A stretch of 64,000 nt of DNA from a virus, in the IMG/VR virus record IMGVR_UViG_3300048762_000330; one strand, given 5' to 3'. Below the pieces are notes generated by a model, which saw only the letters and a list, made by a program, of their open reading frames with translations, did no database searches and was not told the DNA's origin. Every line of letters starts with the position of its first letter. Position 1 is the first letter of the stretch. The translations under genes were made by a program, and so were the position numbers. This document shows positions 4,078 through 33,799 of this stretch, piece by piece.

Positions 4078-4155
4078 GATTTGCTTGCCCTCCAAGCGTT
4101 TGTGTTTAGAGTGAGCGGCGGGTACTGATTATACCTGCCACTCATTCGTATTTAT
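4078..4155 (-). promoter_or_regulatory. late promoter + 5' hairpin leader of the nuclease gene
   Basis: minus strand ATAAATA-N5-GAGTGGCAGGTA(loop)TACCCGCCGCTC-ACTC-TAAACACAA...GGAGG...ATG. Confidence 0.7.
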
Positions 4156-4196
4156 ACTTGACATTCGAAAATTTGATAGTATACTAAATAAAGTTT

Positions 4197-4385
4197 ATGA
4201 TCAAAGCAATTGTTAACGTACTGAAGTTCGATGGGACACTTGTTAGTCATAACGAGTTTGTAACTAATCAGGAAGCTGCTGACTTTATGGTTCCCTTTGT
4301 TATAGAGCATCGACAATTCGATATCAATTATCAGCCGATTGGGGCACTTGACAACCTTGATGAGTGTGCTATACTGAAAGAGTAA
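4197..4385 (+). CDS. hypothetical protein
   Basis: ORF just downstream of TTGACA/TATACT and CTAAATA. Confidence 0.5.
   Translation: MIKAIVNVLKFDGTLVSHNEFVTNQEAADFMVPFVIEHRQFDINYQPIGALDNLDECAILKE
4348..4375 (+). promoter_or_regulatory. sigma70-type promoter of the ncRNA operon
   Basis: TTGACA-16nt-TATACT with TG extended -10. Confidence 0.75.
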
Positions 4386-4438
4386 GAGTGAACGCCAAGC
4401 GATCCGCAAGGGACGTTAAACGACCCAAAGGAACGCAA

Positions 4439-4452
4439 GGATCTTTGACAAT
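4439..4452 (+). promoter_or_regulatory. boxA-like antitermination element
   Basis: GGATCTTTGACAAT resembles rrn-leader boxA and lies about 60 nt after the promoter and ahead of structured RNA. Confidence 0.5.
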
Positions 4453-4462
4453 AAAAATTTCA

Positions 4463-4658
4463 TGGTACGAGCCGCTGGCATTAAGGTTACCTACTTGATG
4501 AAGACCCGGTGAGAAGTTGAAACACCAAATCCGGGAATATTAGCAGTTAGTAACAAGTGCTCCGCAAGGAGTGTAGTAAACAATGCAATGCAAGGGAATG
4601 AAATGCCCAATTTGGAGGCAAGTAATTCCCGGCCTTGAGCTACAATTTGCTCGTACCA
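4463..4658 (+). ncRNA. Y RNA-like RNA 1 (long, with inserted multi-helix domain)
   Basis: 5' TGGTACGAGC pairs with 3' GCTCGTACCA; GAGC-C-G / TTTGCTC bulged helix; GGTTACCT motif; internal CCGGGAAT/ATTCCCGG helix and GCAA tetraloop hairpin. Confidence 0.7.
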
Positions 4659-4662
4659 AATA

Positions 4663-5050
4663 TTCATGTAGAGCTAAAGCTCCATGATCGAGTTCTTCTC
4701 GTCATTAAACCATGAGAAGACGTTCCTGAACTTAACGCATGAAGGAGGCTACTTTGATGCATAGTGGCAAGCGTGACTGTGAAGCAACCGCCGACGATGC
4801 AGAAGGCTATCGCTTCCAATACAGACCTTCTTGTCTACGATAAAGTTCAGCAGTAATTCGCCTGTAAAGCGGGGTCATTTGGTGATGGACGTTAACTAGC
4901 ACTGGTCATTATGGATTAAGACCTTAAATTAATCCTGGTCGCAAGGATCGACAGAAAAATATCCAGTCATTGCCGGTTGCGGCCTTAAATCGGATAGCCT
5001 TGGTGGTGGGCGATATCATCACCCGATTTTTGAATCTCCTTGCGGGAGTT
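4663..5050 (+). ncRNA. unassigned structured RNA domain A
   Basis: no credible ORF; stems TCATG/CATGA, CTTCTC/GAGAAG, CTGAACTT(4726)/AAGTTCAG(4843), GGATTAA/TTAATCC. Confidence 0.5.
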
Positions 5051-5057
5051 GTATTTG

Positions 5058-5119
5058 ACTGAGCCGAAAGTAAGGGTTACCTTCTCATAAAAAGTCTCCT
5101 TACAAAATATTTGCTCAGT
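5058..5119 (+). ncRNA. Y RNA-like RNA 2
   Basis: ACTGAGC/GCTCAGT terminal stem; GAGCCGAAAG...GGGTTACCT...AATATTTGCTC. Confidence 0.7.
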
Positions 5120-5126
5120 ATTTGAG

Positions 5127-5224
5127 TTTTGGATCGAGCCGAAAGGGTAGGGTTATCTCATACCATTTTAATTGAATGCCAGGAAACTGGCTAGCTCCTT
5201 CTCGAATATTTGCTCGTTCCAAAA
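5127..5224 (+). ncRNA. Y RNA-like RNA 3
   Basis: TTTTGGATCGAGC/GCTCGTTCCAAAA stem; GAGCCGAAAGGGTAGGGTTATCTCA; GCCAG-GAAA-CTGGC hairpin; pyrimidine tract; AATATTTGCTC. Confidence 0.75.
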
Positions 5225-5590
5225 ATTTCTGTATTGGCAGAAACGCAGTTTCGCTGTTGTGCGAAAAATAGAACAGCGTGGCGGTGGGTAGAACCGGATG
5301 GCACAATGTGCTCTAAGGCGACTCTCCTGTGACCAGTACACATAAAAGCTGGTGGGAGACCGGGTAGGATAGAACCTATCGGCCTTTTGGGAGAGAAATC
5401 TCCCTAAAGTTTAGTGGTACGTGGCAGCAGATTAATGGAATCGTTGGGATGACGCTGCTTGAGTCATATGTTGAGTAGTGATACTTCAGCATACTTTAGT
5501 GTTGTATATGACGGCGGTATGTAGTATGACATAGGATCTTGAAAATCCTGCTGACGATTCAACCACTTGAGTTTGCCGAAAGGCAAAAAT
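5225..5590 (+). ncRNA. unassigned structured RNA domain B
   Basis: GGGAGA-GAAA-TCTCCC, TTTGCC-GAAA-GGCAAA, GAATCGTT/GACGATTC long-range helix, AGGAT-CTTGAAA-ATCCT anticodon-arm-like hairpin. Confidence 0.5.
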
Positions 5591-5593
5591 GGA

Positions 5594-5775
5594 GCCGATC
5601 ACATTGAACGTCGGGTCTTGCCAGACTGTGATAAACAAGTCGGGGTTGCCGATCACCTAATCCGGGTCTTTCAGAGAGCTAGTGACAACAAGCCATCGGT
5701 TGCCGATCACCTTAATCCGGGTCTTACCAGACTGTGACGACAAGTCGGGGTAGCTGAATCACCTTAATCTCAGGG
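5594..5775 (+). repeat. tandem array of about 54-nt structured repeats (3 full + 1 partial)
   Basis: units start at 5594, 5648, 5702, 5753; shared GCCGATCAC...CGGGTCTT...GTGA..ACAAG...GGT. Confidence 0.85.
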
Positions 5776-5922
5776 AAGCTGAAGAACCTTACTCTTAGCG
5801 TTTTTTTAAGTGTGTACGTTAACATCATTTGAGGTTTATTTGGTCAATCCTTAAAGGCTGGACGTTTCCACTTCACGTCAGAAGTGGTAGGATTCTGTTG
5901 ACCAATAAACAGCAGAGGCTTC

Positions 5923-5957
5923 GGCGGCGGGTGCCAAAACAGCCGCCATTATTATTT
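5923..5957. terminator. hairpin terminator between the ncRNA operon and the convergent gene
   Basis: GGCGGC/GCCGCC stem followed by an AT-rich tract. Confidence 0.5.
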
Positions 5958-7595
5958 TGTGCAAACATTCCAAATCGGATTATAACAAAGATTGCTTGTT
6001 GATGGATCACACGCCGCCCAATCAACTTCTGAGTTAGTCCCATTACCATTCACACATCCACCGGTATAAGGGATAAATCCCGATCCTGTTACTCCCGAAT
6101 CAATTAAGATTCCCACTTGATTGTTGGTTACATTCATTACCCCGATTGCTATATTGGTTAGAGGATCTGGATTCTTTTGAATATGGATTCCGTAACTATT
6201 GCTACTGATGCTTCTAATCAAACCAGTGTTAGGGTCAAGCGCAGAAATATAACTCAAAATTCCCTGATGCATAATGATTCCGGTTCCGCCGCCTCCCGTC
6301 GAACTGGCTATGTGGTTTATAATTGAGTTCCCTTTCAATGCGGTTGAATGCCCATCTATCTCGATAGCATCCACTCCTAAGTCTGGTGTAACCGGGCAGG
6401 AATATCCTGACAGTTGTCCTGATACTCCATTGACGGTTTGAATAATTCCCGTTGCTGGAGTTATTTGTTTATATCCGTTAAGATAGTTACCGTCAATTTC
6501 TACTTTGGAAGCAGAATTCCAAACCGTTAGTTGTCCACCTGGAACTCCATCAGGCTGCTCGTATCGGTTTCCGAGAAATTGATTTCCTGTAATATCGCCC
6601 CATCCACTCATAGTAACACCAGCCGTCCCGTTAAAATTCAAATTACTATTTGCAACGACAACATACCCGTCATTTAAACTACCATTTAAAACCCCATTAG
6701 TTCCACCTTGTATGCCGGTTGTTCTTGCGCTAAACACAGTTGAATTAAGTACAGAGCCGGTGTAGATTCGAACCGCACTTCCGGGAGAATTAATCACTTC
6801 TACATTTTGTAAGAAGGCGTAACTCGCATTACCAAAATCAACATCCCAATTAGCGTAAGCATCGCCGTTGTTAAGAGCACAACCCCAATAAGTTGGTTGG
6901 TCGAAATGAAATGCAAACCTATTTCCATCTATTGTAAGATTTTGTATTCCAACATTTGTGACACCCGCACTGGCGTTCACTACATTGTTTATTTGCTCAT
7001 TGTGACGTTGAATTGTAGTTGCCCATGGAGAATTACTCGAACCTGTCAAAATATAATTTGACTTTGTGAATGTGAGAGGTACATCTGTTGGATATGGAAC
7101 TCCTTGTGCTAAGATGCAATATGTCATTCCATTTGATACATTACCAGGAAGAATTCCAGATAAACAATTTTGTATTGAATTCAAATCGGAATAAACTGTT
7201 CCATAAATTTTACATGCTGCTGGACTTTTCGCATCTGTCATATTGGCATAGTTAGTTACCGTTGTCAATATTTGTGGTCGAAGCGTAGCGAGAAATTGTT
7301 GTGCCACGGTGGTTGTAAGTGTCACACGTTGTGGAACGGTTGCTTTTCGTAGTTGTTGAACAGCAGCGTCTAATGCAGCAACTTCAGTTGAATTAAGTCC
7401 AAATTGCTTCGTATAGCCGTCTTCCATAATGGTGACGAGAGAAGGCACCCAATGTGGATTGGACAAATTTGTGAAAGTGGAATATAGGTAGCTGCATGGT
7501 AACGTATTAGATTGTATTGGTTGTGCCAGACGCTTTGGCGTTTTACCCGGCAGCAGAATCATGAAAATGGTCAGCAATAAAATAAGTTTTCGCAT
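5952..7595 (-). CDS. secreted right-handed beta-helix (pectin-lyase-like) repeat protein
   Basis: signal-peptide-like MRKLILLLTIFMILL; N/G/I-rich beta-helix repeats (IQNLTIDGN, ITGNQF, IDGNYL); start sits 5 nt after CTAAATA. Confidence 0.65.
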   Translation of the reverse strand: MRKLILLLTIFMILLPGKTPKRLAQPIQSNTLPCSYLYSTFTNLSNPHWVPSLVTIMEDGYTKQFGLNSTEVAALDAAVQQLRKATVPQRVTLTTTVAQQFLATLRPQILTTVTNYANMTDAKSPAACKIYGTVYSDLNSIQNCLSGILPGNVSNGMTYCILAQGVPYPTDVPLTFTKSNYILTGSSNSPWATTIQRHNEQINNVVNASAGVTNVGIQNLTIDGNRFAFHFDQPTYWGCALNNGDAYANWDVDFGNASYAFLQNVEVINSPGSAVRIYTGSVLNSTVFSARTTGIQGGTNGVLNGSLNDGYVVVANSNLNFNGTAGVTMSGWGDITGNQFLGNRYEQPDGVPGGQLTVWNSASKVEIDGNYLNGYKQITPATGIIQTVNGVSGQLSGYSCPVTPDLGVDAIEIDGHSTALKGNSIINHIASSTGGGGTGIIMHQGILSYISALDPNTGLIRSISSNSYGIHIQKNPDPLTNIAIGVMNVTNNQVGILIDSGVTGSGFIPYTGGCVNGNGTNSEVDWAACDPSTSNLCYNPIWNVCTK

Positions 7596-7658
7596 GACCA
7601 TATTTAGAAAGCCCTTGACGGCCATTAAAAAATGTGCTATAATAAAAATAGGAGCATT

Positions 7659-7892
7659 ATGACCGGAAAAGATTTGTGGACGATCTTCGATGAAGAGTGC
7701 CGAAAAGACGGTACGATAGCGCTGTTGTTCGGTGTGGAATTTTCCATTGCCAATGGCCGCAGCATCGAACGAAGCGGCCCGCCTGAAGATTTGACGCTGT
7801 GGAATACGATTGCTGCTCGGTTGGAGCGTGGTACAATTGATACCATTGTAGATGTGCTGAAGAAAAAACGAGAAGGATTGCGGCACGCTTGA
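7659..7892 (+). CDS. hypothetical protein
   Basis: GGAG RBS; TTGACG/TATAAT promoter upstream. Confidence 0.6.
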   Translation: MTGKDLWTIFDEECRKDGTIALLFGVEFSIANGRSIERSGPPEDLTLWNTIAARLERGTIDTIVDVLKKKREGLRHA

Positions 7893-7902
7893 AGTGTGCT
7901 TT

Positions 7903-9000: not shown

Positions 9001-9007
9001 AAGGCCC

Positions 9008-9036
9008 TTGACAAGCGTTTAAAAGCGTGCTAAACT
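9008..9036 (+). promoter_or_regulatory. sigma70-type promoter of the Y RNA/tRNA cluster
   Basis: TTGACA-17nt-TAAACT. Confidence 0.75.
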
Positions 9037-9050
9037 GGGTTTTGAATGAT

Positions 9051-9115: not shown

Positions 9116-9128
9116 TAAATATAGAATT

Positions 9129-9474: not shown

Positions 9475-9550
9475 GGCTGGTAAGCTAATCTAGTGAAAGT
9501 ATCGGTCTGAAAAACCGAGGAGTTGAGAGCGTAACTCAAACCAGCCACCA
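9475..9550 (+). tRNA. tRNA-Phe(GAA), non-canonical T-loop
   Basis: GGCTGGT/ACCAGCC + ACCA; TCGGT-CTGAAAA-ACCGA; T-arm TTGAG-AGCGTAA-CTCAA. Confidence 0.85.
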
Positions 9551-9553
9551 TAT

Positions 9554-9631: not shown

Positions 9632-9654
9632 TTTTATTAAGTATAAATACTTGC

Positions 9655-10236
9655 ATGGAAAATGCAAATTTCATAATATCCACTCAATACGACGGAAAAC
9701 CTCGTAAACTTTACCGCCATCTGTGTTTGATATGTGATGTGGAATTTTGGGTTCCACGTCATAAAAAAAAGTTATGCTGCTCGCTTACCTGTCGTGGAAA
9801 AGCTAAAACAAAAAATCAAACTGTAATTCTTATTTGTACAAGATGCGGAATTGAATTTCACAAACGACAAAGCAGTTTAGTTAACAGCAAACATCAAAAA
9901 TTTTTTTGTTCAAGAAAATGTAAAGATTTAGCTCAAAGATTAGATGGTGATTGTCCAGAGATCAGACCTTCGCATTACGGAACCGGAACTGGGATTCATG
10001 GATATCGTTTAATAATGGCAAAAGAAATTAAAGATGGATGCATTGATTGTCATGAAACACAATCATATTTTTTGGAAGTTCATCATATAGATGGAAATCG
10101 AAACAATAACGCAAAATCTAATTTGGAGGTTGTTTGCGTGAAAGATCATCGTCGCCGTCATTTACAATTTATAAAGGACACATGGAATTTTAGTTCCCAT
10201 GTGTTAACACCCCGTGAAAATCTGGCTGAAGTTTGA
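9655..10236 (+). CDS. HNH endonuclease with N-terminal zinc-ribbon repeats
   Basis: CxxC...CSxxC repeats; C-terminal CIDC...LEVHHIDGNRNNN...NLEVVC..DH. Confidence 0.85.
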   Translation: MENANFIISTQYDGKPRKLYRHLCLICDVEFWVPRHKKKLCCSLTCRGKAKTKNQTVILICTRCGIEFHKRQSSLVNSKHQKFFCSRKCKDLAQRLDGDCPEIRPSHYGTGTGIHGYRLIMAKEIKDGCIDCHETQSYFLEVHHIDGNRNNNAKSNLEVVCVKDHRRRHLQFIKDTWNFSSHVLTPRENLAEV

Positions 10237-13575: not shown

Positions 13576-14259
13576 CTACGGTGTTACAGAGAACGATAAT
13601 CGATAATTTTGGTTCCTTTGCCGCCCATTCCGTTGCAAGTGTGGCATATGATCGTATTCCATGACATAAAGTCGTCCTGTCTGTGGATTTATAGGAAATT
13701 CTGACTCATGCTTTTTGCAACAAAGACATTTGTTGCCATATTTTTCTTTTAAGTCAATTCGTTCTTGTGCTGTGTTGAACCCTTCAGCTTGCGCTCGGTG
13801 GGCACGAATTTTGATTTGCCCAGTTCGCCGGATCTCTCGCCACTTTTCTGGATTGGCTATTGCCCATTTTCGACTTTGATTACGTTTCTTTTCTGCATTG
13901 GCAAGATAATATTTTCGACTGTATTCAAGTTTCTTTTCTATATTGGCTTGATAATATTTTCGAGCATTTTCATAGTATTTTTCTGGATTGGCTTGCCGCC
14001 ACTTTCTAGTTTGTTCACAAACTTTTTCTGGATTTGCTTGATATCGGTTTCGTCCCTGTTCACAAACCCTTTCTCGATTCGCTTGATACCATTTTCGAAG
14101 ATACTCGCATTTCTTTTTGGAATTTTTTTGTGTCCATTTTTGATTTTGTTTGCGATCACAAGCAATACACTTTTTACTGCTTGTATACCTTTTTGGTGAC
14201 CCGCACTTCCGACATGGTTTTCCTTCAAAAAATTTTGGTGATAAATTGTCTTCAGACAT
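13576..14259 (-). pseudogene. repeat-HNH element copy 1, HNH core deleted and frameshifted
   Basis: Zn finger + 7 repeats; after EYDH the VVPLSKGGTNWISNIQPL segment seen in paralogs is missing, and GGKGTKIIDYR lies in another frame. Confidence 0.8.
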
Positions 14260-14330
14260 GACGGTACGCTCCGTTGTGTTTAGGCTGTATTGTGAAGCTC
14301 ATTACTTCACATACAGCCGTTTGTATTTAG
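14260..14330 (-). promoter_or_regulatory. HNH element leader (late promoter + hairpin + RBS hairpin)
   Basis: CTAAATA-CAAAC-GGCTGTATGTGAAG..CTTCACAATACAGCC-TAAACACAACGGAG..CCGTC-ATG. Confidence 0.85.
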
Positions 14331-14358
14331 CATCTATATAAAACCAGGAGTGTGTTAT

Positions 14359-14971: not shown

Positions 14972-15634
14972 TTAGGTTCTATAATCAATAATTTTAGTTC
15001 CTTTGCCGCCCATTCCATTGCAGATATGGCATAAAGGTTGAATATTTGAAATCCAATTAGTTCCAAGTTTTTGATTTGGACAACAGCAGACTTTATAATT
15101 TTTACTACACCACTGACAAACTGAAAGTGGAACTATGTGATCTCGTTCCATTACATAACATCGTCCTGTTATTGGATTTATAGGAAATTCTGATTCGTGT
15201 TTTTTACAACGAAGACAATGATGCCCATAACATTCGTTAAGATCAATCCATTGTTTTGTTGAGTGATATCCTTCGGCGTTTTTTCGTCTGGCACGATTTT
15301 TTATTCCTGATGTTCGTGTACTTTCACGATACTTCTTTGTATAAGATTGAATCATCTCAGAATTTGATTGTCGCCATTTTCGATGAATTTCATAACACTT
15401 TTCTGGATTTTCTTGTTGCCATTTTCGACTTTTTTCACAAACCTTTTTAAAATTTGATTGATACCATTTTTGACTACGTTCATGACACTTTTCTAGATTT
15501 TTTGTACTCCATTTTCGAATGCGCTCACGACTACAATTAACACATTTTTTGTTGTTAATATACCTCATCAATCCATTACACTTCTTGCATGGTTTTCCTT
15601 CAAAATATTTGGATGATAAATTATTGTTAGACAT
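14972..15634 (-). CDS. repeat-HNH element copy 2 (intact)
   Basis: EGKPCKKC...CVNC; 15-aa repeats; ERDHIVPLS...GTNWISNIQPLCHIC; ends IIDYRT. Confidence 0.85.
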   Translation of the reverse strand: MSNNNLSSKYFEGKPCKKCNGLMRYINNKKCVNCSRERIRKWSTKNLEKCHERSQKWYQSNFKKVCEKSRKWQQENPEKCYEIHRKWRQSNSEMIQSYTKKYRESTRTSGIKNRARRKNAEGYHSTKQWIDLNECYGHHCLRCKKHESEFPINPITGRCYVMERDHIVPLSVCQWCSKNYKVCCCPNQKLGTNWISNIQPLCHICNGMGGKGTKIIDYRT

Positions 15635-15706
15635 TGCGCTCCAAAGGCAGTGCTTTGTTTAGGCTGTATGCGAACTAGAACTTCACATGCAGCCGTTTCT
15701 ATTTAG
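15635..15706 (-). promoter_or_regulatory. HNH element leader
   Basis: CTAAATA-GAAAC-GGCTGCATGTGAAG..TTCGCATACAGCC-TAAACAAAG. Confidence 0.85.
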
Positions 15707-15731
15707 CATCTATATATGTTATAATCATATT

Positions 15732-20080: not shown

Positions 20081-21279
20081 TGGCACTCACCTTATACCGC
20101 CGCCATACGGCAAGTTGCATAAAGGGCTATCTACAGAATTTTCGGGTTCATTTTCCAACCACCAAACGAGAGCGTAATAAAGACTGTCAATGCCCGATTA
20201 ATTGCGAAGGCAAGCTCTCTAGCGAATTGCGGGTGTCAAACCGGTCCTTGCATACCTCCGACTGGCTTCAAGCCCAGGAAACGGCTCTAAAGTGGCAAGA
20301 ATGGCGTGCTGTGGCAGAACCGCTACCCAAAGATCCTACGGTTCAATATGCTGTAGATTCGTTTCTTACTTCGCAAGGTTCACAAGGCCGAAATGTGGAG
20401 AAAAACACCTTTCACGGTTTCGATGTTTTATTGCACCAACGGCTGCTTCCGTTTGCCAAGTCGTTTGCCAGCATTCGAGTATTTGATGATCTGGATGTAG
20501 TAAGCAAATTTGTGGAATCTTGGACGAATCTTCAAGCCGGGGGACCGCTGGCTGATTCAACAAAAAAAACGGAAATCGAGCGGCTTCGTTTCTTTTTCAA
20601 CTATTGCAAAGATCGTGAATGGCTGAAAAACAACTATGCCAAAAAAATCAAAATAAGTTTCACTACACAGAAGAAATTTGGGCTTTCACCAAAAGAAGAG
20701 CAGCGTTTGTTTGATGCCATCGACTCTGAAGAACTCAAAGTATTTTGCTTGGTAATGAGACACAGCGGTCTTCGCATTTCCGATGCAACAATGCTCAATG
20801 CATCACAGTTGGTTACTCGTGTTACCAACGGTGAAGGTTTCGCATTGAAGCTCTTCCAGAAAAAAACAAAGGAATTAGTTTATATCCCAATCCCGATGTT
20901 GCTTGCTGATGCGCTTCATGCGCTTCCATACAAAAGTGGTGAATATTGGTTCTGGACCGGTAAAGGAACTCCAGACACCGCCATTGATAATATGTACAAT
21001 CGTTTTAAGGTAGTTGTGAACAAATTGAAATTTGACCGCTCTGTAAGTCCTCACGTGTTAAGACATACATTCAGTATAAACCATTTAAACGCTGGAACGC
21101 CGGTGAAATTTGTTAGTAGATGGTTAGGTCATCACAGCACGACAATTACAGAAAAATCATATTCTCATGCTGTACAAGAAACTTTACTTGCATCAGATGA
21201 AGCATATGATAAATCTATGTTGCGGCAACAAGAGCAACAGTTGAAGTGGAGTCATGCTTCTGGAGCCGTTTCTATTTAG
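20080..21279 (+). CDS. tyrosine recombinase / integrase
   Basis: RHSGLRISDA (R), K, HVLRHTF (HxxR), LGH, Y; SAM-like core-binding domain. Confidence 0.9.
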   Translation: MALTLYRRHTASCIKGYLQNFRVHFPTTKRERNKDCQCPINCEGKLSSELRVSNRSLHTSDWLQAQETALKWQEWRAVAEPLPKDPTVQYAVDSFLTSQGSQGRNVEKNTFHGFDVLLHQRLLPFAKSFASIRVFDDLDVVSKFVESWTNLQAGGPLADSTKKTEIERLRFFFNYCKDREWLKNNYAKKIKISFTTQKKFGLSPKEEQRLFDAIDSEELKVFCLVMRHSGLRISDATMLNASQLVTRVTNGEGFALKLFQKKTKELVYIPIPMLLADALHALPYKSGEYWFWTGKGTPDTAIDNMYNRFKVVVNKLKFDRSVSPHVLRHTFSINHLNAGTPVKFVSRWLGHHSTTITEKSYSHAVQETLLASDEAYDKSMLRQQEQQLKWSHASGAVSI

Positions 21280-21310
21280 ACGTGGTATAATGGAATTTGG
21301 AGTGTAAACT

Positions 21311-22314: not shown

Positions 22315-22404
22315 GGACGAATGGGTGAGTCTGGTTAAAACCAATTGCCTGTAAAGCAATCCTCCTTCGGGAGTACAAAGGTTCAAATCCTTTTTCGTCC
22401 ACCA
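22315..22404 (+). tRNA. tRNA-Tyr(GUA) 1
   Basis: GGACGAA/TTCGTCC + ACCA; ATTGC-CTGTAAA-GCAAT; long variable arm with TTCG loop; TTCAAAT. Confidence 0.95.
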
Positions 22405-22414
22405 TCTTTCTTTT

Positions 22415-22503
22415 GGCGCATTAGACCGCTAAGGAGACGGCACCCGCTGTAACCGGGTTGTCCTTTATGGACCCGAGAGGTTCGATACCTTTATGCGCCA
22501 CCA
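22415..22503 (+). tRNA. tRNA-Tyr(GUA) 2
   Basis: GGCGCAT/ATGCGCC + ACCA; ACCCG-CTGTAAC-CGGGT; long variable arm; TTCGATA. Confidence 0.92.
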
Positions 22504-23600: not shown

Positions 23601-24347
23601 ATGTTAAGCTTTTCTCAATTTCTCATGCTTCAATCCAAATTCGCTGGTGGTCCATCTGGCGCACGCCCATTCGACAACATTCCAATGGGCGACCGGGGCG
23701 GCAATCCGCAGACGGTTTTTCAGAACGCCACGAAAGGACAATTCGGGAATCTAGAGCGAATGAAGTTTGCTTATGAAGACGTGAAAGAGTGGGATATGCA
23801 ATGGTGCTTCGCAGCGCCGTATAAACCATCGTTAGGTGAGTCTGAAAAAAAGAAAGATCAGTATGCTTACATCGATCATCCAGACAAAGGAATACTTTTG
23901 CGTAAGGTGGGAAGCAATCCAAATGAACACGCACATGAATTAATGACAAAGGAACATGGTTTAGATTGGACTAAAACCTATCCACATGGTCATATTTTCA
24001 TTAACCACACAAAGAAAAGAACATCCATGGTTCATTATCCATTAACGGGAAAACAACGAAGAGATTTACACTCTGATCTTCGTACCAAGTTACAAGTTCC
24101 AAAGTCTTATTTACAAGAGTCCGAAGAACCGCATTTGATTGGTAGGATTCAAGATCATCTGAAAGATCCTAACAATGCAATTGTTGTTCGAACAGCGACA
24201 AAAAATTTTGGACCATACAAAAGCAAACACGCCGGAATGTTTAGCAATCCAAGTCGTAAAGAACCAGGAGTATGGATTCAACACGGCAAGGGAAAAATGT
24301 ACGCTGACCCTTCTCAAGTTAAGTTTGGGCACTACAAGACTTCTTAG
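23601..24347 (+). CDS. late protein with capsid-targeting-like N-terminus
   Basis: MLSFSQFLMLQ; tandem with the previous gene. Confidence 0.6.
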   Translation: MLSFSQFLMLQSKFAGGPSGARPFDNIPMGDRGGNPQTVFQNATKGQFGNLERMKFAYEDVKEWDMQWCFAAPYKPSLGESEKKKDQYAYIDHPDKGILLRKVGSNPNEHAHELMTKEHGLDWTKTYPHGHIFINHTKKRTSMVHYPLTGKQRRDLHSDLRTKLQVPKSYLQESEEPHLIGRIQDHLKDPNNAIVVRTATKNFGPYKSKHAGMFSNPSRKEPGVWIQHGKGKMYADPSQVKFGHYKTS

Positions 24348-25141
24348 ATACAAAGCGGATGCGGGTTTTTACGAAAATCTTTTTGTGCTCCGGTTTTTTG
24401 ATAACGGTGCCAATTTTTTCGATTACATGAAAAACACAAAGGTTGAATGTTCCAAATCCAGTTAGTGCCGCCTTTTGAAAGCGGAATGATATGGTCTGGT
24501 GTCAAGTATCTTTCCGCTACCCGGCGATGAGATAATTCTGATTCATGAATACCGCAGTCAAGACAACGAATTTTATATTGCTCTTTTAAATCAATCCATG
24601 CTTGTGGCGGATATGAACCTTCGGCTCCTGCTCGTTTGGCATTAGATTTTCTGTGCGATGCTCGTTGACTTTCATAAAATTTTTCTGGATTTTCTTGACG
24701 CCATTTTCGGCATTGTTCCTGACACTTTTCTGGATTGGCTTGTGACCATTTTCGACTTGCTTCACGACGCTTTTCTGGATTTTCTTGCACCCATTTTTGT
24801 TTTATTTCATTGCTTCTTCCTGGATTTTCTTGTACCCATTTTTGATATCTCTCACGAACCTTTTCTGGATGAGTTTGTGCCCACATTCGTCTGCTTGCAT
24901 GTGCTTTCTCTAAATTTGCCCAATACCATTTTTGAGACTTCTCACAACACTTTTCAGAATTGTCTTGATACCATTCTTTTTTCTTCTTATGAACTTTTTC
25001 TAAATTTTCTTGTTGATATTTTCGATCTGATTTGTGTTTGCAATTAACACAAGCTTTGCTGCTAATAAGTCTTATCAGTGACCCACATGTTACGCACGGC
25101 TTTCCTTCAAAATATTTCGATGATAAATTCTCGGTAGACAT
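24344..25141 (-). CDS. repeat-HNH element copy 3 (intact, 8 repeats)
   Basis: MSTENLSSKYFEGKPC; TPDHIIPLSKGGTNWIWNIQPLCFSCN; ends QKDFR + borrowed tail. Confidence 0.85.
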   Translation of the reverse strand: MSTENLSSKYFEGKPCVTCGSLIRLISSKACVNCKHKSDRKYQQENLEKVHKKKKEWYQDNSEKCCEKSQKWYWANLEKAHASRRMWAQTHPEKVRERYQKWVQENPGRSNEIKQKWVQENPEKRREASRKWSQANPEKCQEQCRKWRQENPEKFYESQRASHRKSNAKRAGAEGSYPPQAWIDLKEQYKIRCLDCGIHESELSHRRVAERYLTPDHIIPLSKGGTNWIWNIQPLCFSCNRKNWHRYQKTGAQKDFRKNPHPLCI

Positions 25142-25213
25142 GATGGCTAACTCCATTGTGTTTAGGCTGCATTGCGAAGGTAAGAACTTCACATGCAGCC
25201 GTTTCTATTTATA
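25142..25213 (-). promoter_or_regulatory. HNH element leader
   Basis: TATAAATA-GAAAC-GGCTGCATGTGAAG..CTTCGCAATGCAGCC-TAAACACAATGGAG. Confidence 0.85.
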
Positions 25214-27769: not shown

Positions 27770-27776
27770 AAAGTAC

Positions 27777-28571
27777 CTACCTTTGTTTATTTATGTCTCT
27801 TCGGTAATCAATAATTTTGGTTCCTTTGCCGCCCATTCCATTACAATCGTGGCAAAGCGGTTGGATGTTCGAAATCCAATTTGTTCCAAGTTTTTGATTT
27901 GGACAACGGCAGACTTTATAATTTTTACTACACCACTGACAAACTGAAAGTGGGATTATATGATCTTGTTCCATTGCATAAGGTCGCCCTGTCCTTGGAT
28001 TTATAGAAAATTCTGATTTGTGTTTTTTACAGCAAAGACAATGGTTGTCATATTGTTCTTTTAGATCAATCCAGTCTTGTGTGGTGTAATAACCTTCGGC
28101 TTGATTTCGTTTTGCACGAGATTTTTCCAATGCAACTCGGTGGATTTCACGATATCGTTCACAATTGTTTTCTCGCCGCTTTAGATCCCTTTTATGATTT
28201 TGCTCACGGACTTTTTCTGGATTCGCTTTCAGCCACTTTAGATGATTCTCACGATTCTTTTCTGGATTTGCTTGTTGCCATTTTCGAGATTGCTTATTAG
28301 CTTTTTCTGAATTTTGTTGATACCACCGTTGAACCTTCTCTGGATTTGCTTGTTGCCATTTTCGAACAATCTCACGAGCCTTTTCTAGATTAGCTCGACG
28401 CCATTTTCGATTTGCTTTAAGAACTTTTTCTGAATTTTCTTGTTGCCATTTTCGAGCCTGATTAAATGCACAATCAACACAGTGTTTATTGCTTGCATAC
28501 CTTTTCGTTGACCCACACTTCTTGCATGGTTTTCCTTCAAAATATTTGGGTGATAAATTATCTTCAGACAT
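27777..28571 (-). CDS. repeat-HNH element copy 4 (intact)
   Basis: MSEDNLSPKYFEGKPCKKC; EQDHIIPLS..GTNWISNIQPLCHDC; IIDYR + tail. Confidence 0.85.
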   Translation of the reverse strand: MSEDNLSPKYFEGKPCKKCGSTKRYASNKHCVDCAFNQARKWQQENSEKVLKANRKWRRANLEKAREIVRKWQQANPEKVQRWYQQNSEKANKQSRKWQQANPEKNRENHLKWLKANPEKVREQNHKRDLKRRENNCERYREIHRVALEKSRAKRNQAEGYYTTQDWIDLKEQYDNHCLCCKKHKSEFSINPRTGRPYAMEQDHIIPLSVCQWCSKNYKVCRCPNQKLGTNWISNIQPLCHDCNGMGGKGTKIIDYRRDINKQR

Positions 28572-28639
28572 GACGGGCACTCCGTTGTGTTTAGGCTGCT
28601 TGAGAAGGTCACACTTCCCATGCAGCCGTTACTATTTAG
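28572..28639 (-). promoter_or_regulatory. HNH element leader
   Basis: CTAAATA-GTAAC-GGCTGCATGGGAAG..CTTCTCAAGCAGCC-TAAACACAACGGAG. Confidence 0.85.
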
Positions 28640-28692
28640 CATTGCAAAAACTATTGACATCTTTCAGCGTTTGTGATATGCTGAAATCTGCT

Positions 28693-28782: not shown

Positions 28783-28839
28783 TCTGCGGTATTTATCCTT
28801 CCCTCTCTCAACAAATTCCTATTTCTCTCTTGACAATTT

Positions 28840-28849
28840 AGATGCATCT
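28840..28849. promoter_or_regulatory. palindromic AGATGCATCT operator-like site in promoter spacer
   Basis: between TTGACA and TATCCT; recurs at 40370, 40677, 42663, 52070. Confidence 0.6.
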
Positions 28850-28868
28850 ATGGTATCCTAGAATTGTA

Positions 28869-29276
28869 ATGAAGATCAACGATGCAATGAAACTGCCGGA
28901 AGGCACCAACTATTACGAAGTCTCCGAAGAGGTCTGGTATCAAACCGGCCCGGATGACGCTGATCGAGATTTCGACAATTTTCAAACGTTCGACAATTTT
29001 GCGGAAGCCATCGCTGCCGTTTTGAAATCGAACACCCACAATCGCCTCTACATCGACTTGATGGTGCGTACCAACAAAGATGGTCGGTTTGGCGCATACG
29101 GATTGCCGGTGTGGTCTGGTAGCAGACTCATGATGCTCGATTGCAAGCCAACTGGCTGGCTAGTAAACATGCAGCCTGATTTACCCTCTGGACGCACGGA
29201 ATGTATTACAGAACTTGAAGCGTGTGCATCGGCTATCATTTGGAAGTGGTGGAATGCCAGGAAGCGTAATGGGTAA
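28869..29276 (+). CDS. hypothetical protein
   Basis: ATG just downstream of a sigma70 promoter. Confidence 0.55.
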   Translation: MKINDAMKLPEGTNYYEVSEEVWYQTGPDDADRDFDNFQTFDNFAEAIAAVLKSNTHNRLYIDLMVRTNKDGRFGAYGLPVWSGSRLMMLDCKPTGWLVNMQPDLPSGRTECITELEACASAIIWKWWNARKRNG

Positions 29277-29321
29277 ATATCAAGGGCTAAATATCTTGAT
29301 GAACCGGAAGTAAATGACAAT

Positions 29322-30563
29322 ATGCAGACCTTTACACAATTCATAGCGGAGGAAGGTCATGGATCGCATCAAGATGCGTTGCATATCATTCGTACTTTGA
29401 AGTCTCACGGATATGAGCATTCATACATTGCTGGTGGGGCTGTAAGAGATACGCTCCGTGGGCGGCAAGATCAAATCAAAGACTTTGATGTAGCCACCGA
29501 GTGTCCGATGGAAGTGACGCTCAAATTGTTTCCCGGTAGTCAAAAAGTTGGGGCTGCATTTGGTGTATGTCTGTATCGAGGCATTGAGATTGCTCAATTT
29601 CGTCAGGAACAAGGATCTGTCGATTCAAGACACCCTACAAATGTTACCTTTGTACGAGATCCAAAACAAGATCAACAACGGCGTGATTTCACAATCAATT
29701 CTGCCATGATGGATGACAATGGGAAAGTGTTGGATCACTTTGGAGCAAAGCGGGACATTGAAAAAAAGGTTATCAGATTTGTTGGTAATCCAGATGATCG
29801 TTTGTCCGACGATCTTTTGAGAGCATTAAGAGCTTGCCGTTTCGCCACAAAGCTTGGCTTCGAAATTGAACCCGAGAGTTTGGCCGCAATCAAAAAACAT
29901 GCTCCAAATATTCTTAAAATCTCTGCTGAACGTATTACACAAGAAATAACTAAAAGCTTGGAAGCGAATCCGGGTCGGACATTGGAGCTTTTGCAAGCTA
30001 CCAATTTGCTCAAATATATCCTACCCGAAGTGGACAATTTAAGTCCTAAACAGCACAGCACATTAATGAACATCCTAAACCAATCTCATTCCGAGAGCCA
30101 TATGTTCGCTCTGGCTGCTTTGTTCTCTGAACTGGACCAGAACACCGTCCAACGCATTCTGAAGCGCCAAAGGCTATCTAATGACGAACAAAGCCATATT
30201 CTCGCTGTATTGGGATTGCAGCAACGCATTTCCGCCGTCTCTGAACGCACCAGCATGGATGTAATGAAGCGCCTGATGCGGGAGCCGTTCTTTGCAGATG
30301 CCTTGAAATTGTATGGAATGCGAGTTCGAGCCGGTGACGGTGCTGTGAGCCGCCACCCATTCGATTTTTTGACGAAGCTTTTTGGTCGGATGCGGGCGGA
30401 CGATTTGCACCCCGAGAAATTGATATCGGGCGATGATCTCGTAAAACTTGGTATGAAGCCAGGAAAGCAATTCAAAGACATCTTGGATCGAATTGAAAAT
30501 GCCCAACTTCGTGGTGAAATACATTCCAAAGCACAAGCCTTGGCGATGGTTCATTCAATATGA
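29322..30563 (+). CDS. cca: CCA-adding tRNA nucleotidyltransferase / poly(A) polymerase family
   Basis: AGGAVRD..G...KDFDVAT, RRDFTINS, DD.LRALRA.RFA, ISAERI..E; N-terminus MQTFTQFIAEE. Confidence 0.9.
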   Translation: MQTFTQFIAEEGHGSHQDALHIIRTLKSHGYEHSYIAGGAVRDTLRGRQDQIKDFDVATECPMEVTLKLFPGSQKVGAAFGVCLYRGIEIAQFRQEQGSVDSRHPTNVTFVRDPKQDQQRRDFTINSAMMDDNGKVLDHFGAKRDIEKKVIRFVGNPDDRLSDDLLRALRACRFATKLGFEIEPESLAAIKKHAPNILKISAERITQEITKSLEANPGRTLELLQATNLLKYILPEVDNLSPKQHSTLMNILNQSHSESHMFALAALFSELDQNTVQRILKRQRLSNDEQSHILAVLGLQQRISAVSERTSMDVMKRLMREPFFADALKLYGMRVRAGDGAVSRHPFDFLTKLFGRMRADDLHPEKLISGDDLVKLGMKPGKQFKDILDRIENAQLRGEIHSKAQALAMVHSI

Positions 30564-30802
30564 ACCCGCCAAAAGATTACACCATTCAAGAATTAACTCA
30601 TGATGTTCGTGTTCTCATGGACTATCTTCACGAACGTGGAATTTTGAATCGGTTTTACCCAGGTGTTGATTTCAACGCTATGACAATTCTGACAAAAGAT
30701 GGTGAAATCGACGTAGATGTGTTTGATGGTGTGATCGAAATACCGCCAGAGATTGTCAACAAAATTCGTCGGTTTATTTCTTTGCAAGGGCCGACAAGTT
30801 GA
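30560..30802 (+). CDS. hypothetical protein
   Basis: coupled to cca. Confidence 0.5.
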   Translation: MNPPKDYTIQELTHDVRVLMDYLHERGILNRFYPGVDFNAMTILTKDGEIDVDVFDGVIEIPPEIVNKIRRFISLQGPTS

Positions 30803-31304
30803 CAGAAACACCAGCTTGAAGCACTGGGTTCCATCCAGCACTTGCGCCACCTACAAAAAGCATTCTTTCCGGCGCTACGAATGAGACAACCGGCGTAATT
30901 TGTACAACGGTAGTAAACACAAACGAAGACGAAAAATTAATGTTAGTGCCGCTTGGTTGGGCGGAACTAAAACTAGGTCCGATATCACCGCCAAGCAAAA
31001 ATGTAAAGCGACCTGTAGTCAACAAGCTCTTATGTAAACCTTGTCTAATTCCAGCGGATATTCCCCAAAATGCTTGACCTGTTGCCGTTGTCATTTTCTT
31101 TGTAAAAATATCGGCTGTGGTGGTCATATACACACCACTTTGCCCAACTATCGGATAAAGAGCAGTAAGACCTATAGTAAACTTTGGTGAGCCAAGTTGA
31201 TTATACGATTGTACAGCGGAAACAGATGCCGGAAGTGGAAATGTGGGGAAAGTCTGGCAGAACGCAACACTACAAAACGCAAGTAAAAGTAAAAGGTTTT
31301 TCAT
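30774..31304 (-). CDS. exported beta-rich protein
   Basis: signal/lipoprotein-like N-terminus MKNLLLLLAFCSVAFC. Confidence 0.5.
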   Translation of the reverse strand: MKNLLLLLAFCSVAFCQTFPTFPLPASVSAVQSYNQLGSPKFTIGLTALYPIVGQSGVYMTTTADIFTKKMTTATGQAFWGISAGIRQGLHKSLLTTGRFTFLLGGDIGPSFSSAQPSGTNINFSSSFVFTTVVQITPVVSFVAPERMLFVGGASAGWNPVLQAGVSVNLSALAKK

Positions 31305-31666
31305 ACAAATTATATAGGCATTTTATTGTAACTGCGTCGATCTTCACATGCCGATAAGAAGAGTGGCGTAAACACATGCTTGAATTGTGTTTGAAAACAT
31401 ACTTTCGACAAAACCTTTACAGTCACAATTAGGCATAGTACATCGGGATGGTAAGAATTGATCTTCCAATTTTCCACCATTGCCGGCAAAGGTAACATGC
31501 AAAATAGAATGATGACCACATTGACATTTCATAATGTAAAGGCGTACCCGGTTCAACGCCGGGTACGCCGCTGCATTTCCCGTGCAAAAGGAGAGAGACG
31601 GGAAGCTGATCCTATTAAACCACAATTTTAGATTTTGTCAAGCCTATATAAACGCAGGGATGATTT

Positions 31667-31960
31667 ATGGTGCAATTAACAGGAAAAAACTTTGACGCAG
31701 AAGTCTTGCAAAACCAACCATTGCCGGTTCTTTTACTTTGGGGTGCCTGGATGGATGTCAATACAACCAAAATTCGGTTACAAATGATGAAGCTAGATGA
31801 AACAAAAGTGAAATTAGCACAGGCTTATATTGATGATGTGCCGGATCTGGCGATGAAATTCAGTATTAGAAACTGTCCCTATGTTATTTTAATAGTCGAT
31901 GGTATGGTAGTGGCTGAAGGCACAAACCTGACATCCGAAATTCTTCAAAAAATTCAATAG
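31667..31960 (+). CDS. thioredoxin-fold protein lacking CxxC
   Basis: LTGKNFDAEVL...PVLLLWGAW...DDVPDLAMKFSIR.CP. Confidence 0.65.
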   Translation: MVQLTGKNFDAEVLQNQPLPVLLLWGAWMDVNTTKIRLQMMKLDETKVKLAQAYIDDVPDLAMKFSIRNCPYVILIVDGMVVAEGTNLTSEILQKIQ

Positions 31961-31967
31961 GTACATC

Positions 31968-32762
31968 ATGTTTGACAAAATCTATAAGTTTAGCAAATTA
32001 GCAGCAGTGCTTTGTGTGATTCCAATCACATTTTATCTTTGTGTTTTTCTCCATTCTCTGACTGCTACTACGAACCAACTTGCTATAACGGCAAAAGTAT
32101 TACCCACACAAGTAGATGGTCGTATCGGAAAATTGCAGAAAGATGTATTAGACAAAATCGACACTGTTCAAGGGAGCTTGAACACAGAGGTCAACACATT
32201 GGCGCATCTTATTGATACTCGAATGGACAAGTTCACAACGACAACTGATAACCGGCTTGGCGCACTCGAAACGGATACATTCAAAGCTGTTGGTGACATT
32301 CGAGAAACTGCCAATACACAGTTGACTACAGCGAACAATTCTGTAACCACATTGGTTACTGCTTATGCTGAAATTCCAAAGGTTGTTGGCGCAAGATATG
32401 AAAGAGATTTTAATTCATATTTTGATTGTAAAATCAATAAATTATGTTTAACAGGGCAGGCAAGTGATATGTTATTTGCAATGCGGCAAACAAGCCGACA
32501 AATTGAGAAAGCTTCAGATGACTTTGATGCCGCATTACCAATAATTTTAACCAATGTAAAATTAATTACAACTAAGTTTCAAGACACGGAAGATCAATCT
32601 CAATCACTCATGCGTGAAAGTGCCGGGATGATGGCTAATATGCGGAAGGCCACAACGCCGCTTCCAACTTGGTTAAGAATTGTACTTGGTGTAGGACCGC
32701 CAGTTGCTCAAGGCGGTGCAGCAGTGGTAGCTGCCGGGTCGGTGTTAGGATGGTTTAAGTGA
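31968..32762 (+). CDS. membrane-anchored coiled-coil protein
   Basis: N- and C-terminal hydrophobic segments flanking long heptad helices. Confidence 0.55.
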   Translation: MFDKIYKFSKLAAVLCVIPITFYLCVFLHSLTATTNQLAITAKVLPTQVDGRIGKLQKDVLDKIDTVQGSLNTEVNTLAHLIDTRMDKFTTTTDNRLGALETDTFKAVGDIRETANTQLTTANNSVTTLVTAYAEIPKVVGARYERDFNSYFDCKINKLCLTGQASDMLFAMRQTSRQIEKASDDFDAALPIILTNVKLITTKFQDTEDQSQSLMRESAGMMANMRKATTPLPTWLRIVLGVGPPVAQGGAAVVAAGSVLGWFK

Positions 32763-33721
32763 TTTGTTATTTCCTGGCAAATTTGAATGAAATAATTTTG
32801 CGAATAATTATATTTCATAAGTTGAATATCTTTATGCACCCATTGAATATTTCCAGGTATGTAGCCCTTTGTTGAGTCAATACGGTCTAATGACGCCGTT
32901 CCCCAAGATCTACCTCCATGTGTTGATTGTCTTTGCTGTATAGAAAGTCCAGTTAAAGCGCAACATTCATTTTGTTTTTCAAATAATTCCCACCCTTCTT
33001 TGATAGTTACTTCAAATTTCAATTCTCGTTTTTTTGCACCATTTTTTAAACTACTCCAGTAGCGTCTGCTTAAATTTTTATAACCACGCCAAGAATGAGA
33101 TCGATTCTTAAAAGTAGTGGTTTCAACATTTTGATGTATCAATGCTTTATATGATGAAACTTTTTCGCATAACGCAAAAAACTTTTCTTCTGATAACGCC
33201 CATTTCATTCTTTGAATATCTTTATGTATCCATTGAATATTTCCTTTTGTATACCCTTGTGAAGAATCTATCCGATCAAGAGAAGCATTTCCACATCTTT
33301 TTTTATGTATTGTAAAAGGAAGTGTTAATTCTCTTCCAGTCAATGCACATTGTTTATTTTGTTGGGTAAAAATATTCCAGGCATCTTGAATCGTAATTAA
33401 AAATGAAAATTTTCGAAGTTGTGCTTTGCGTCGAACCCCATACCAATATGCTCCTGATAAATCCATATATCCTTTCCACCCATTATTATTTTTCCCGCAA
33501 ACGCTGTGGCGATAACACTGCGGACATCCAGATTTCAATCTGCTATAAATTTTAGCTTTCCATTCGTGTTTACAAATTGAACAAGACCACCAAACAATTT
33601 TATTACTTTGTGTTGTGAATTGATTTGGTGTGTTTGGTGTATTTCGTGAAGGATGCCATTCTTCTGCAATTTTTGGAAAGGCAATATTTAAAAATTGGTG
33701 TTTGTAAATAGAAACAGACAT
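32708..33721 (-). CDS. putative homing endonuclease (zinc ribbon + two tandem His-Me-like domains)
   Basis: EEWHPSRN...VWWSCSICKHEW...CPQC, then 2x CALTG...ASLDRIDS..GY..GNIQW.HKD. Confidence 0.7.
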   Translation of the reverse strand: MSVSIYKHQFLNIAFPKIAEEWHPSRNTPNTPNQFTTQSNKIVWWSCSICKHEWKAKIYSRLKSGCPQCYRHSVCGKNNNGWKGYMDLSGAYWYGVRRKAQLRKFSFLITIQDAWNIFTQQNKQCALTGRELTLPFTIHKKRCGNASLDRIDSSQGYTKGNIQWIHKDIQRMKWALSEEKFFALCEKVSSYKALIHQNVETTTFKNRSHSWRGYKNLSRRYWSSLKNGAKKRELKFEVTIKEGWELFEKQNECCALTGLSIQQRQSTHGGRSWGTASLDRIDSTKGYIPGNIQWVHKDIQLMKYNYSQNYFIQICQEITNHLNHPNTDPAATTAAPP

Positions 33722-33799
33722 TGGGCGCTACCTCCTAAGTAGCGACATGTTCAGGGCAGATGTGATGCTAAAACATTACTTCTGCCCGATTCTATTTAT
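33722..33799 (-). promoter_or_regulatory. late promoter + 5' hairpin + RBS-sequestering hairpin
   Basis: ATAAATA-GAATC-GGGCAGA...TCTGCCC-TGAACAT-GTCGCTAC TTAGGAG GTAGCG..ATG. Confidence 0.7.

Follow-up and report, generated by a model that had tools for sequence, protein, structure and literature searches.

A two-hairpin head shared by nuclease genes of several families in an uncultured phage and its possible reading as a late cis-antisense RNA gene

Layout of the head and its occurrence in the window

The regions ahead of nuclease genes were profiled in the IMG/VR virus record IMGVR_UViG_3300048762_000330, a stretch of 64,000 nucleotides (nt) which was analysed in its full length and is called the window hereafter. 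Ten sites of the window share a common layout, called the head here, in which a (C/A)TAAATA box is followed by 5 nt and a G-started hairpin of 31-36 nt (hairpin 1), then by T(A/G)AACA, then by a short second hairpin with GGAG or GAGG (hairpin 2) and finally by ATGTCT. The head has a size of about 95 base pairs (bp) and is a portable unit which includes the start of the open reading frame (ORF). The ten heads precede seven repeat-HNH genes, one HNH remnant, one T5orf172 gene and one DUF4379/His-Me gene, and their coordinates are collected in Table 1. As the HNH copies are paralogs, these heads represent three independent instances within the window and not ten.

The geometry of the head is constant. 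The (C/A)TAAATA box lies 69-79 nt 5′ of the ATG in all ten heads, the first base of hairpin 1 is the sixth nucleotide after TAAATA in 10/10, the free energy of hairpin 1 ranges from -15 to -21 kcal/mol, and the z score of the whole leader from -2.1 to -6.5. The pattern TAAATA-N30-60-TRAACA gave 11 matches in the window where 1.4 were expected, a count which was reached in none of 100 shuffles; ten of these matches are the leaders described here and the remaining one, at 56677, is a chance match. A strong hairpin at the offset of the head was found at ten of the 55 TAAATA sites of the window, all of them heads, and at one more site (34922), where it is a coincidental terminator.

A covariance model was trained on the HNH-type leaders only, the T5orf172 and DUF4379 leaders being left out, and was searched against the 64 kb. 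Both omitted leaders were recovered, that of T5orf172 at 25.1 bits (E about 9e-4) and that of DUF4379 at 40.5 bits (E about 2e-7), and these were the sole further full-length matches at E < 0.01. No gene of the window outside the ten sites was found with this layout, the head being absent from a 5′-truncated HNH paralog (50088-50609, minus strand) as well as from the true GIY-YIG/NUMOD3 gene (36329-37465, minus strand). A search of the whole window against Rfam at gathering scores returned two transfer RNA (tRNA) matches only, and no family for the head.

The layout is thus confirmed as real, tied to nuclease genes and common to several families. An earlier note on this DNA had claimed that three nuclease families share one leader layout while the hairpin sequences differ. 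The first part is borne out by the pattern counts and hairpin offsets and, through the covariance-model search which that note had itself proposed, by the recovery of the two leaders of other families; the second part agrees with the heads of relatives, whose hairpin sequences diverge completely while the layout is the same. Its extension to all repeat-HNH genes stands for the seven genes and the remnant, but the truncated paralog is without a leader.

The TAAATA box as a late promoter

The distance between TAAATA and the ATG of long ORFs showed a sharp peak at 5-6 nt, with four cases in the window, at 9655(+), 34987(+), 26977(-) and 7595(-), and 19 cases in G001, a 166.6-kb IMG/VR contig with the same leaders. 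The large terminase gene of G001 is among the ORFs which start 5-6 nt after TAAATA, and the box also occurs upstream of gp23 in that contig. Control hexamers gave no such peak before the ATG of long ORFs in the window and G001. These spacings support the view that TAAATA behaves as a late promoter, and many late genes would appear to be leaderless.

By this spacing, late transcripts are predicted to begin 6-7 nt past the box, where the first G of hairpin 1 stands. The claim that hairpin 1 is the first structure of the late messenger RNA (mRNA) is upheld to this extent, as its position coincides with a start which is itself predicted from the TAAATA spacing. Hairpins 1 and 2 both lie wholly downstream of the predicted late start, and only an optional helix between the promoter and the codons would fit the rule known from T4.

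The strand on which the head folds

Covariation was examined in 20 leaders, from this window and its nearest relatives. Both hairpins covary, 90.6% of the cells being paired against 25-39% when the partners were slid, and 11 pairs have changes on both sides. TAAACA faces ATGTCT across hairpin 2, so that the two are arms of one helix, and it is here that the two strands differ. On the sense strand the pairs between these arms read A-U, A-C, A-U, C-G, A-U and C-A, and three positions of the helix are paired in at most one of the 20 leaders. On the opposite strand AGACAU and GUGUUU pair throughout by way of G-U, with G2-U36 present in 20/20 leaders and the outer helix 86% paired. The constancy of TAAACA and ATGTCT is hence explained by the pairing of these arms on the other strand.

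The same asymmetry is seen in 57 distinct leaders. In 54 of them the domain spanning TRAACA and ATGTCT folds more stably on the antisense strand, by over 1 kcal/mol (mean energy -10.2 kcal/mol antisense, -4.7 sense), the continuous outer helix measures 7.1 bp antisense against 1.0 bp sense, and the outer eight positions hold 127 cells which are A-C on the sense strand, and so G-U on the antisense, against 10 which are G-U on the sense strand. When each domain was compared with its own dinucleotide shuffles, the mean z score was -3.4 for the antisense strand (below -2 in 50/57) and -0.8 for the sense strand (below -2 in 3/57), by which the asymmetry is no effect of base composition. The inner helix holds 3.35 pairs with cognate arms and 1.13 with permuted arms, and the cognate value was reached in none of 5000 permutations. 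Hairpin 1 of 32 diverse relatives follows the same direction, its energy being -17.3 kcal/mol antisense and -13.9 sense, with G-U pairs numbering 50 and 9, respectively.

Judged from these comparisons of sequence, the conserved RNA fold is chiefly that of the strand opposite the nuclease gene. The earlier note had taken mRNA structure as the main conserved feature, and this has to be given up, since the positions concerned mismatch as A-C in the sense RNA but pair as G-U in the antisense one. A closure of the sense-strand helix by ACA and UGU was also considered and dropped, as its pairs are invariant and the A-U pair is lost without compensation in copies with ATGCCT.

The inverted box and the predicted antisense RNA

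Codons 4-6 of the T5orf172 and DUF4379 genes, and of most relatives, read nnT ATT TAY, which is TAAATA inverted and placed 5 nt from AGACAT, a spacing that matches the 5-6 nt between TAAATA and ATG in the leaderless late genes. A 25-base pattern which includes this inverted TAAATA was found in 47 IMG/VR stretches, against a chance estimate of our own of about 0.06, and these stretches hold 34 distinct leaders. In the HNH type the corresponding codons 5-7 are AAT TTA T/GCA, whose synonymous sites are invariant in 14/14 heads while nearby codons vary, and the inverted box TG(A/C)TAAATT equals the sense box TGCTAAATA at 8/9 positions.

An RNA started there would be 75-91 nt long, with a 5′-terminal hairpin holding the anti-Shine-Dalgarno (anti-SD) and anti-AUG sequences followed by a terminator hairpin, and by its geometry it would span the ribosome site and the start codon and bring its own terminator. 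In all 59 leaders the antisense form of hairpin 1 runs into a U-rich tail, with 4-8 U (mean 6.4) among the next 10 nt; this tail is complementary to the sense TAAATA together with the A-rich spacer of 5 nt.

Proposed function

We propose that the head is a late cis-antisense RNA gene of about 80 nt, of the IS10 RNA-OUT type, which restrains the nuclease, and we consider this reading moderately probable. The head of such a free-standing cassette of the homing-endonuclease type would consist of two T4-type late promoters, about 85 bp apart and placed face to face around the two hairpins. Transcription of the nuclease mRNA would begin from the sense (C/A)TAAATA, with the first G of hairpin 1 as the initial base, and the inverted box (TATTTAY in T5orf172, DUF4379 and most relatives; AATTTA(T/G)CA in the HNH type) would drive an antisense RNA beginning at AGACAU, opposite AUGUCU. 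In its first part AGACAU would pair with GUGUUU, the complement of TAAACA, with the anti-SD in or beside the loop, and in its second part the complement of hairpin 1 and the U-rich tail would act as an intrinsic terminator. Being complementary to the whole 5′ untranslated region (UTR), the ribosome site and the start codon, this RNA would hold down translation of the nuclease, pairing perhaps beginning between the SD loop and the anti-SD loop, and the convergent promoters may add mutual transcriptional interference. Both the discrete antisense RNA and its repression of the nuclease are thus put forward by inference.

The earlier note had suggested a shared switch of the nucleases. A common restraint is reasonable, but that note placed it on the wrong molecule and the wrong strand, given the antisense fold.

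A wider reading, to which we would give a little less than an even chance, is that homing-endonuclease cassettes of many unrelated families in T4-like phages carry a safety catch of their own, comparable to a toxin-antitoxin system and acting in trans, with the head exchanged as a unit. The catch would be a late antisense RNA of about 80 nt, the terminator of which mirrors the nuclease promoter. The paralogous heads are nearly identical, on account of which the antisense RNAs would act in trans. If this is true, all copies would be damped in dependence on copy number, as in the multicopy inhibition of IS10, the phage could tolerate eight or more nuclease genes, and the head including the first six codons would be swapped between nuclease families as one unit.

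Among the selfish elements of large lytic phages, homing endonucleases are the foremost, and knowledge of how a phage tolerates many of them stems mainly from T4. One portable head for HNH, GIY-YIG, T5orf172, DUF4379, endonuclease VII and NUMOD3 genes in dozens of uncultured phages would answer this question in a general way, and it would also represent a widespread family of antisense RNAs, a class with very few members known from T4-like phages. In annotation, the head can serve as a marker of nuclease cassettes and of what is left of them after decay, and the inverted late boxes may explain the recurrent N-termini of the form MSxxIY.

Spread among relatives

A megablast of 6 kb of the window against 50,697 phage records gave no match, and the window, which encodes a gp53-like baseplate protein, is without a close relative among sequenced phages. 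G001 has a gp23 capsid gene (E 2.9e-141), the protein of which is about 60% identical to capsids of T4-like pelagiphages, methylophages and cyanophages. Nucleotide and protein similarity between the window and G001 is found almost only in the nuclease cassettes, which would fit horizontal exchange of nuclease genes between otherwise diverged genomes. In G001 an HNH-type hairpin 1, almost unchanged, stands ahead of a canonical GIY-YIG/NUMOD3 gene.

Exact-pattern scans gave seven more distinct leaders in metagenome contigs, as well as 21 IMG/VR stretches, and more than 50 distinct copies of the head were found in uncultured phage contigs. The genes behind them encode GIY-YIG, HNH, NUMOD3, endonuclease VII and DUF4379 proteins and two unknown zinc-finger proteins, and many heads outlive the decay of their ORF. 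A jumbo-phage contig of 352 kb (IMGVR_UViG_3300032007_000006) carries two heads (L056 and L066) with a TTAAATA box, in which ACT TAT (TAAGTA inverted) replaces ATT TAT, and these precede zinc-finger proteins of 407 and 446 residues whose family is unassigned (PHROG 23051).

The head is not a universal licence of nucleases: the G001 homologues of the T5orf172 and DUF4379 genes are without a head, and several homing endonuclease genes of G001 (GIY-YIG, LAGLIDADG and NUMOD3) have a leaderless late start instead. The leader was also not found at distant HNH homologues in 14 other viral contigs, which indicates that it belongs to a phage lineage and not to a protein family. The cultured phages S-SKS1, Mosig, Melnitz-3 and DLP_6, with a capsid about 60% identical, gave no match of the covariance model.

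Weighing of the alternatives

Several observations count against the antisense reading. The HNH-type inverted box ends in T (TAAATT) and lies 6 nt instead of 5 from AGACAT, and TAAATT is without a peak of leaderless genes, so its role as a promoter has no support from that proxy; the inverted box of DUF4379 is GTAAATA, which is only near the consensus. In the GIY-YIG relatives the TATTTAY codons encode the catalytic IY, and their conservation may be partly at the protein level. The flanks of the two TAAATA boxes covary weakly (p about 0.008), where a reading with promoters only predicts no covariation. With regard to the fold, hairpin 1 of the HNH type in the window has no strand preference (14 sense G-U against 13 A-C cells), the mean energies of these copies are alike on both strands (-18.1 and -18.2), and the 5′ domain of the DUF4379 head is equally stable on both.

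The alternative of a leader which works on the sense strand only, in which hairpin 1 at the 5′ end protects the late mRNA from 5′-end-dependent decay and hairpin 2 displays the ribosome site, is considered rather unlikely. In read-through RNA it would include a lock, the promoter image UAUAAAUA... pairing with codons 4-6 (UAUUUAY) in a three-way junction from which the late transcript escapes, as in the classical scheme of T4. It agrees with the start of hairpin 1 at the predicted +1 and with the SD being mostly unpaired in the loop of hairpin 2 in 55/59 leaders. Between the promoter and codons 4-6 a helix of 8-10 bp is possible in T5orf172, DUF4379 and many relatives; this helix is present in the minimum free energy structure of about 12/30 read-through RNAs and increases the opening energy by 1.8 kcal/mol on average, and cognate flanks pair better than permuted ones (p 0.008; right flank p 0.002). 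However, the strand asymmetry runs the opposite way, the sense domain round the ribosome site shows no significant structure (z -0.8), the helix comprises only 5-6 A-U pairs in most HNH heads and shows no cognate effect there (p 0.57), and one promoter motif present twice in opposite orientations would of necessity give the core complementarity. A lock on the sense strand and an antisense RNA may also coexist. A role as terminator or insulator, in which the antisense hairpins and U-tails stop transcription from the 3′ side of the cassette and no dedicated antisense RNA exists, appears improbable to us. Its target in the window would be plus-strand early transcription running antisense through the nuclease genes, which suits the orientation of these genes opposite to their neighbours, the TTGACA promoters directly after the T5orf172 head, the DUF4379 head and two HNH heads on the plus strand, the U-rich tail, and the complement of hairpin 2 being flagged as terminator-like at 4082-4098 and 15636-15653. 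Left unexplained by it are the inverted TAAATA fixed at 5 nt from AGACAT, the upstream helix which begins exactly at AGACAU and the anti-SD loop, and in relatives (L006) the cassette is also co-directional with its neighbours.

Very little weight is given to the proposal of the earlier note that hairpin 1 and UAAACA on the late mRNA form a protein-binding site or switch which licenses translation of toxic nucleases. CT(A/G)AACA and the length and position of hairpin 1 do stay constant while the hairpin sequence diverges fully, and the element is confined to nuclease genes, but the constancy of TAAACA and ATGTCT is explained by pairing on the opposite strand, many nucleases of the same families manage without the element, and nothing points to a binding protein, no candidate having been found. 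Least probable of all, to a degree that we would hardly reckon with it, is an element at the level of DNA, whose inverted repeats and hairpin mark a junction of recombination or mobility or are merely inherited by paralogy. The repeat unit has the promoter box as its first element, there are solo fragments as well as truncated copies, and the window and G001 have almost only the nuclease cassettes in common; against this, compensatory changes and strand-specific G-U pairs indicate selection at the RNA level, and the same head stands ahead of unrelated ORFs with wholly different hairpin sequences.

Some further candidates were tried and set aside. Loops of CsrA type were dropped as GGA is missing from some loops, and the ideas of RegB at GGAG, MazF at ACA and RNase III processing were dropped for want of a supporting pattern. 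Early promoter cassettes of PeSL type were likewise discarded, since the promoter of the head belongs to the late type.

Feature coordinates and neighbouring genes

The coordinates of heads, genes and fragments are given in Table 1.

Table 1. Features of the nuclease heads in the window (positions on the 64,000-nt stretch; energies in kcal/mol)
Feature	Position	Strand	Remarks
T5orf172 (GIY-YIG-like) nuclease gene	3220-4077	-	Pfam PF10544, E 2.6e-4; PHROG 681 'endonuclease', E 2.5e-43
T5orf172 leader, promoter box to ATGTCT	4072-4156	-	
T5orf172 sense late-promoter box TATAAATA	4149-4156	-	overlaps the -35 element of a divergent TTGACA promoter on the + strand
T5orf172 hairpin 1, 31 nt	4113-4143	-	free energy -19.3 sense, -16.0 antisense; read on the + strand, predicted terminator of the antisense RNA
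T5orf172 TAAACA	4103-4108	-	as UGUUUA, 3′ arm of the 5′-terminal helix of the predicted antisense RNA
T5orf172 hairpin 2 region	4078-4102	-	GGAGGG in the loop of GCTTG/CAAGC
Predicted T5orf172 antisense RNA, AGACAU to U-rich tail, 85 nt	4072-4156	+	fold -34.6, z -5.7; 5′-terminal hairpin, then terminator hairpin
T5orf172 inverted late-promoter box AATAAATA	4059-4066	+	codons 4-6; 5 nt upstream of AGACAT
DUF4379/double His-Me (endonuclease VII-like) gene	32708-33721	-	Pfam PF14311, E 1.3e-17; PHROGs endonuclease, HNH and EndoVII families, two stretches each
DUF4379 leader	33716-33800	-	covariance match 40.5 bits
DUF4379 leader promoter box TATAAATA	33793-33800	-	
DUF4379 leader hairpin 1	33754-33787	-	
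DUF4379 leader TGAACA	33748-33753	-	
DUF4379 leader SD hairpin	33722-33747	-	
DUF4379 leader ATGTCT	33716-33721	-	
DUF4379 inverted box TGTAAATA	33703-33710	+	codons 4-6; G before TAAATA off-consensus
Predicted DUF4379-head antisense RNA	33716-33800	+	-31.1, z -4.6
HNH-type head	14254-14331	-	gene 13576-14259
HNH-type head, type-b hairpin 2	15629-15707	-	gene 14972-15634
HNH-type head with TATAAATA box	25136-25213	-	gene 24344-25141, Pfam HNH
HNH-type head	28566-28640	-	gene 27777-28571
HNH-type head	48520-48596	-	gene 47833-48525
Predicted antisense RNA, 77 nt	48520-48596	+	-32.2, z -4.9; 12-bp 5′ helix
HNH-type inverted box TGATAAATT	48505-48513	+	reverse complement of codons 5-7 AAT TTA TCA; 6 nt from AGACAT
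HNH-type head, type b	49530-49608	-	gene 48930-49535
HNH-type head	60124-60199	+	gene 60194-60787
Complete head with only 10 codons (HNH remnant)	59008-59083	+	inverted box mutated to AATTCA
Solo head fragment TCTAAATAgaaacGGCT	21264-21280	-	covariance model 16 bits
Solo head fragment TCTAAATAtagaaacGGCTGCA	54213-54234	-	

The two solo fragments consist of the box, the spacer and the first bases of hairpin 1, stand directly 3′ of plus-strand genes and are probably deletion scars. The number of 15-residue repeats varies among the HNH copies. Among the four paralogs at 14972-15634(-), 27777-28571(-), 13576-14259(-) and 60194-60787(+), two have a 17-residue Cys-rich insertion inside the HNH motif and the other two end truncated within it. 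The headless paralog at 50088-50609(-) has an intact HNH motif (Pfam E 1.9e-9) and lacks the N-terminal zinc finger, and the headless GIY-YIG and NUMOD3 gene lies 52 nt behind the preceding gene of the same strand.

A gene for a protein with Ro60/TROVE and vWA domains (1580-3331, plus strand) converges with the T5orf172 ORF, and the two share 112 nt at their 3′ ends. The window also holds a gene for a CCA-adding enzyme at 29322-30563(+), two adjacent tRNA-Tyr genes at 22315-22503(+) and an Rfam tRNA at 9475-9547(+) which was not called by ARAGORN. The repeated motif (a/g)(t)gcatctaTTGAC stands ahead of early promoters of sigma-70 type at 42674, 51237, 51597 and 52081 (plus strand), and most early promoters of the window have an extended -10 element (TGnTAnaCT).

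Comparison with known systems

In the RNA-OUT/RNA-IN system of IS10/Tn10 and in P22 sar, a promoter in the 5′ end of the target gene faces the promoter of the gene itself, and a short (about 70-80 nt) and stably folded antisense RNA masks both ribosome site and start codon; the target encodes a protein which cuts or rearranges DNA. The head resembles these in its facing promoters, short folded RNA and cover of the start region, which are here predicted from sequence. It differs from them in that both promoters are late boxes of T4 type, that the antisense RNA would end in a terminator tail complementary to the sense promoter, and that it serves at least six nuclease families in lytic T4-like phages.

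In the ompA 5′ UTR and the leader of T4 gene 32, a stem-loop at the very 5′ end stabilises the mRNA, and the head is similar to them in having a predicted 5′ stem-loop, an unpaired stretch behind it and another hairpin close to the ribosome site. Selection acts there on the mRNA strand, whereas the strand signal of the head is opposite: hairpin 1 does lie at the inferred 5′ end of the mRNA, with no strand preference in the window and an antisense preference in relatives.

The leaders of I-TevI, I-TevII, I-TevIII, segB and Aeh1 mobE restrict the nuclease by a late promoter and structure at the ribosome-binding site. In T4 this site is hidden in a hairpin, and late transcription starts within the hairpin, by which the late RNA escapes it (Edgell, Gibb and Belfort 2010, PMC2988022); in seg43(25) of Aeromonas phage 25 the ribosome site is not sequestered, and a stable hairpin stands immediately 5′ of it (PMC2988022). 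A late promoter directly upstream of the nuclease gene and RNA structure near the ribosome site are common to these leaders and the head. In the head, by contrast, the predicted start precedes both hairpins, a loop holds the ribosome site and conservation of the fold is seen on the opposite strand; sequestration of the T4 kind is not found, as the SD stands in the loop and only the weak outer helix between promoter and codons could lock it.

In the T4-like cyanophage S-PM2, experiments have detected an antisense RNA, named CfrI, which lies opposite a homing endonuclease gene (Millard et al. 2010, cited in PMC2984593). CfrI is about 225 nt long, overlaps psbA as well and belongs to a single locus, unlike the head with its repeated two-hairpin 5′ UTR.

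The nearest precedent comes from 'fractured genes' of marine metagenomes, in which free-standing GIY-YIG and Vsr-like endonuclease genes, two unrelated families in uncultured phage-like DNA, were reported with hairpins in their 5′ UTRs (Dassa et al. 2009, PMC2677866). Hairpins were present in 15/16 of these, ten also had a late-promoter motif, often TATAAATA, and one locus had kept the hairpin after loss of the endonuclease (PMC2677866). The observation of a shared leader therefore has a published precedent, the likeness being one of description (PMC2677866). Those hairpins were read as sense translational hairpins of the mobE type, with no antisense promoter, strand test or two-hairpin layout, and full-text literature searches found no description of an antisense reading for this kind of leader. 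We take the head to be a probable form of cis-antisense control.

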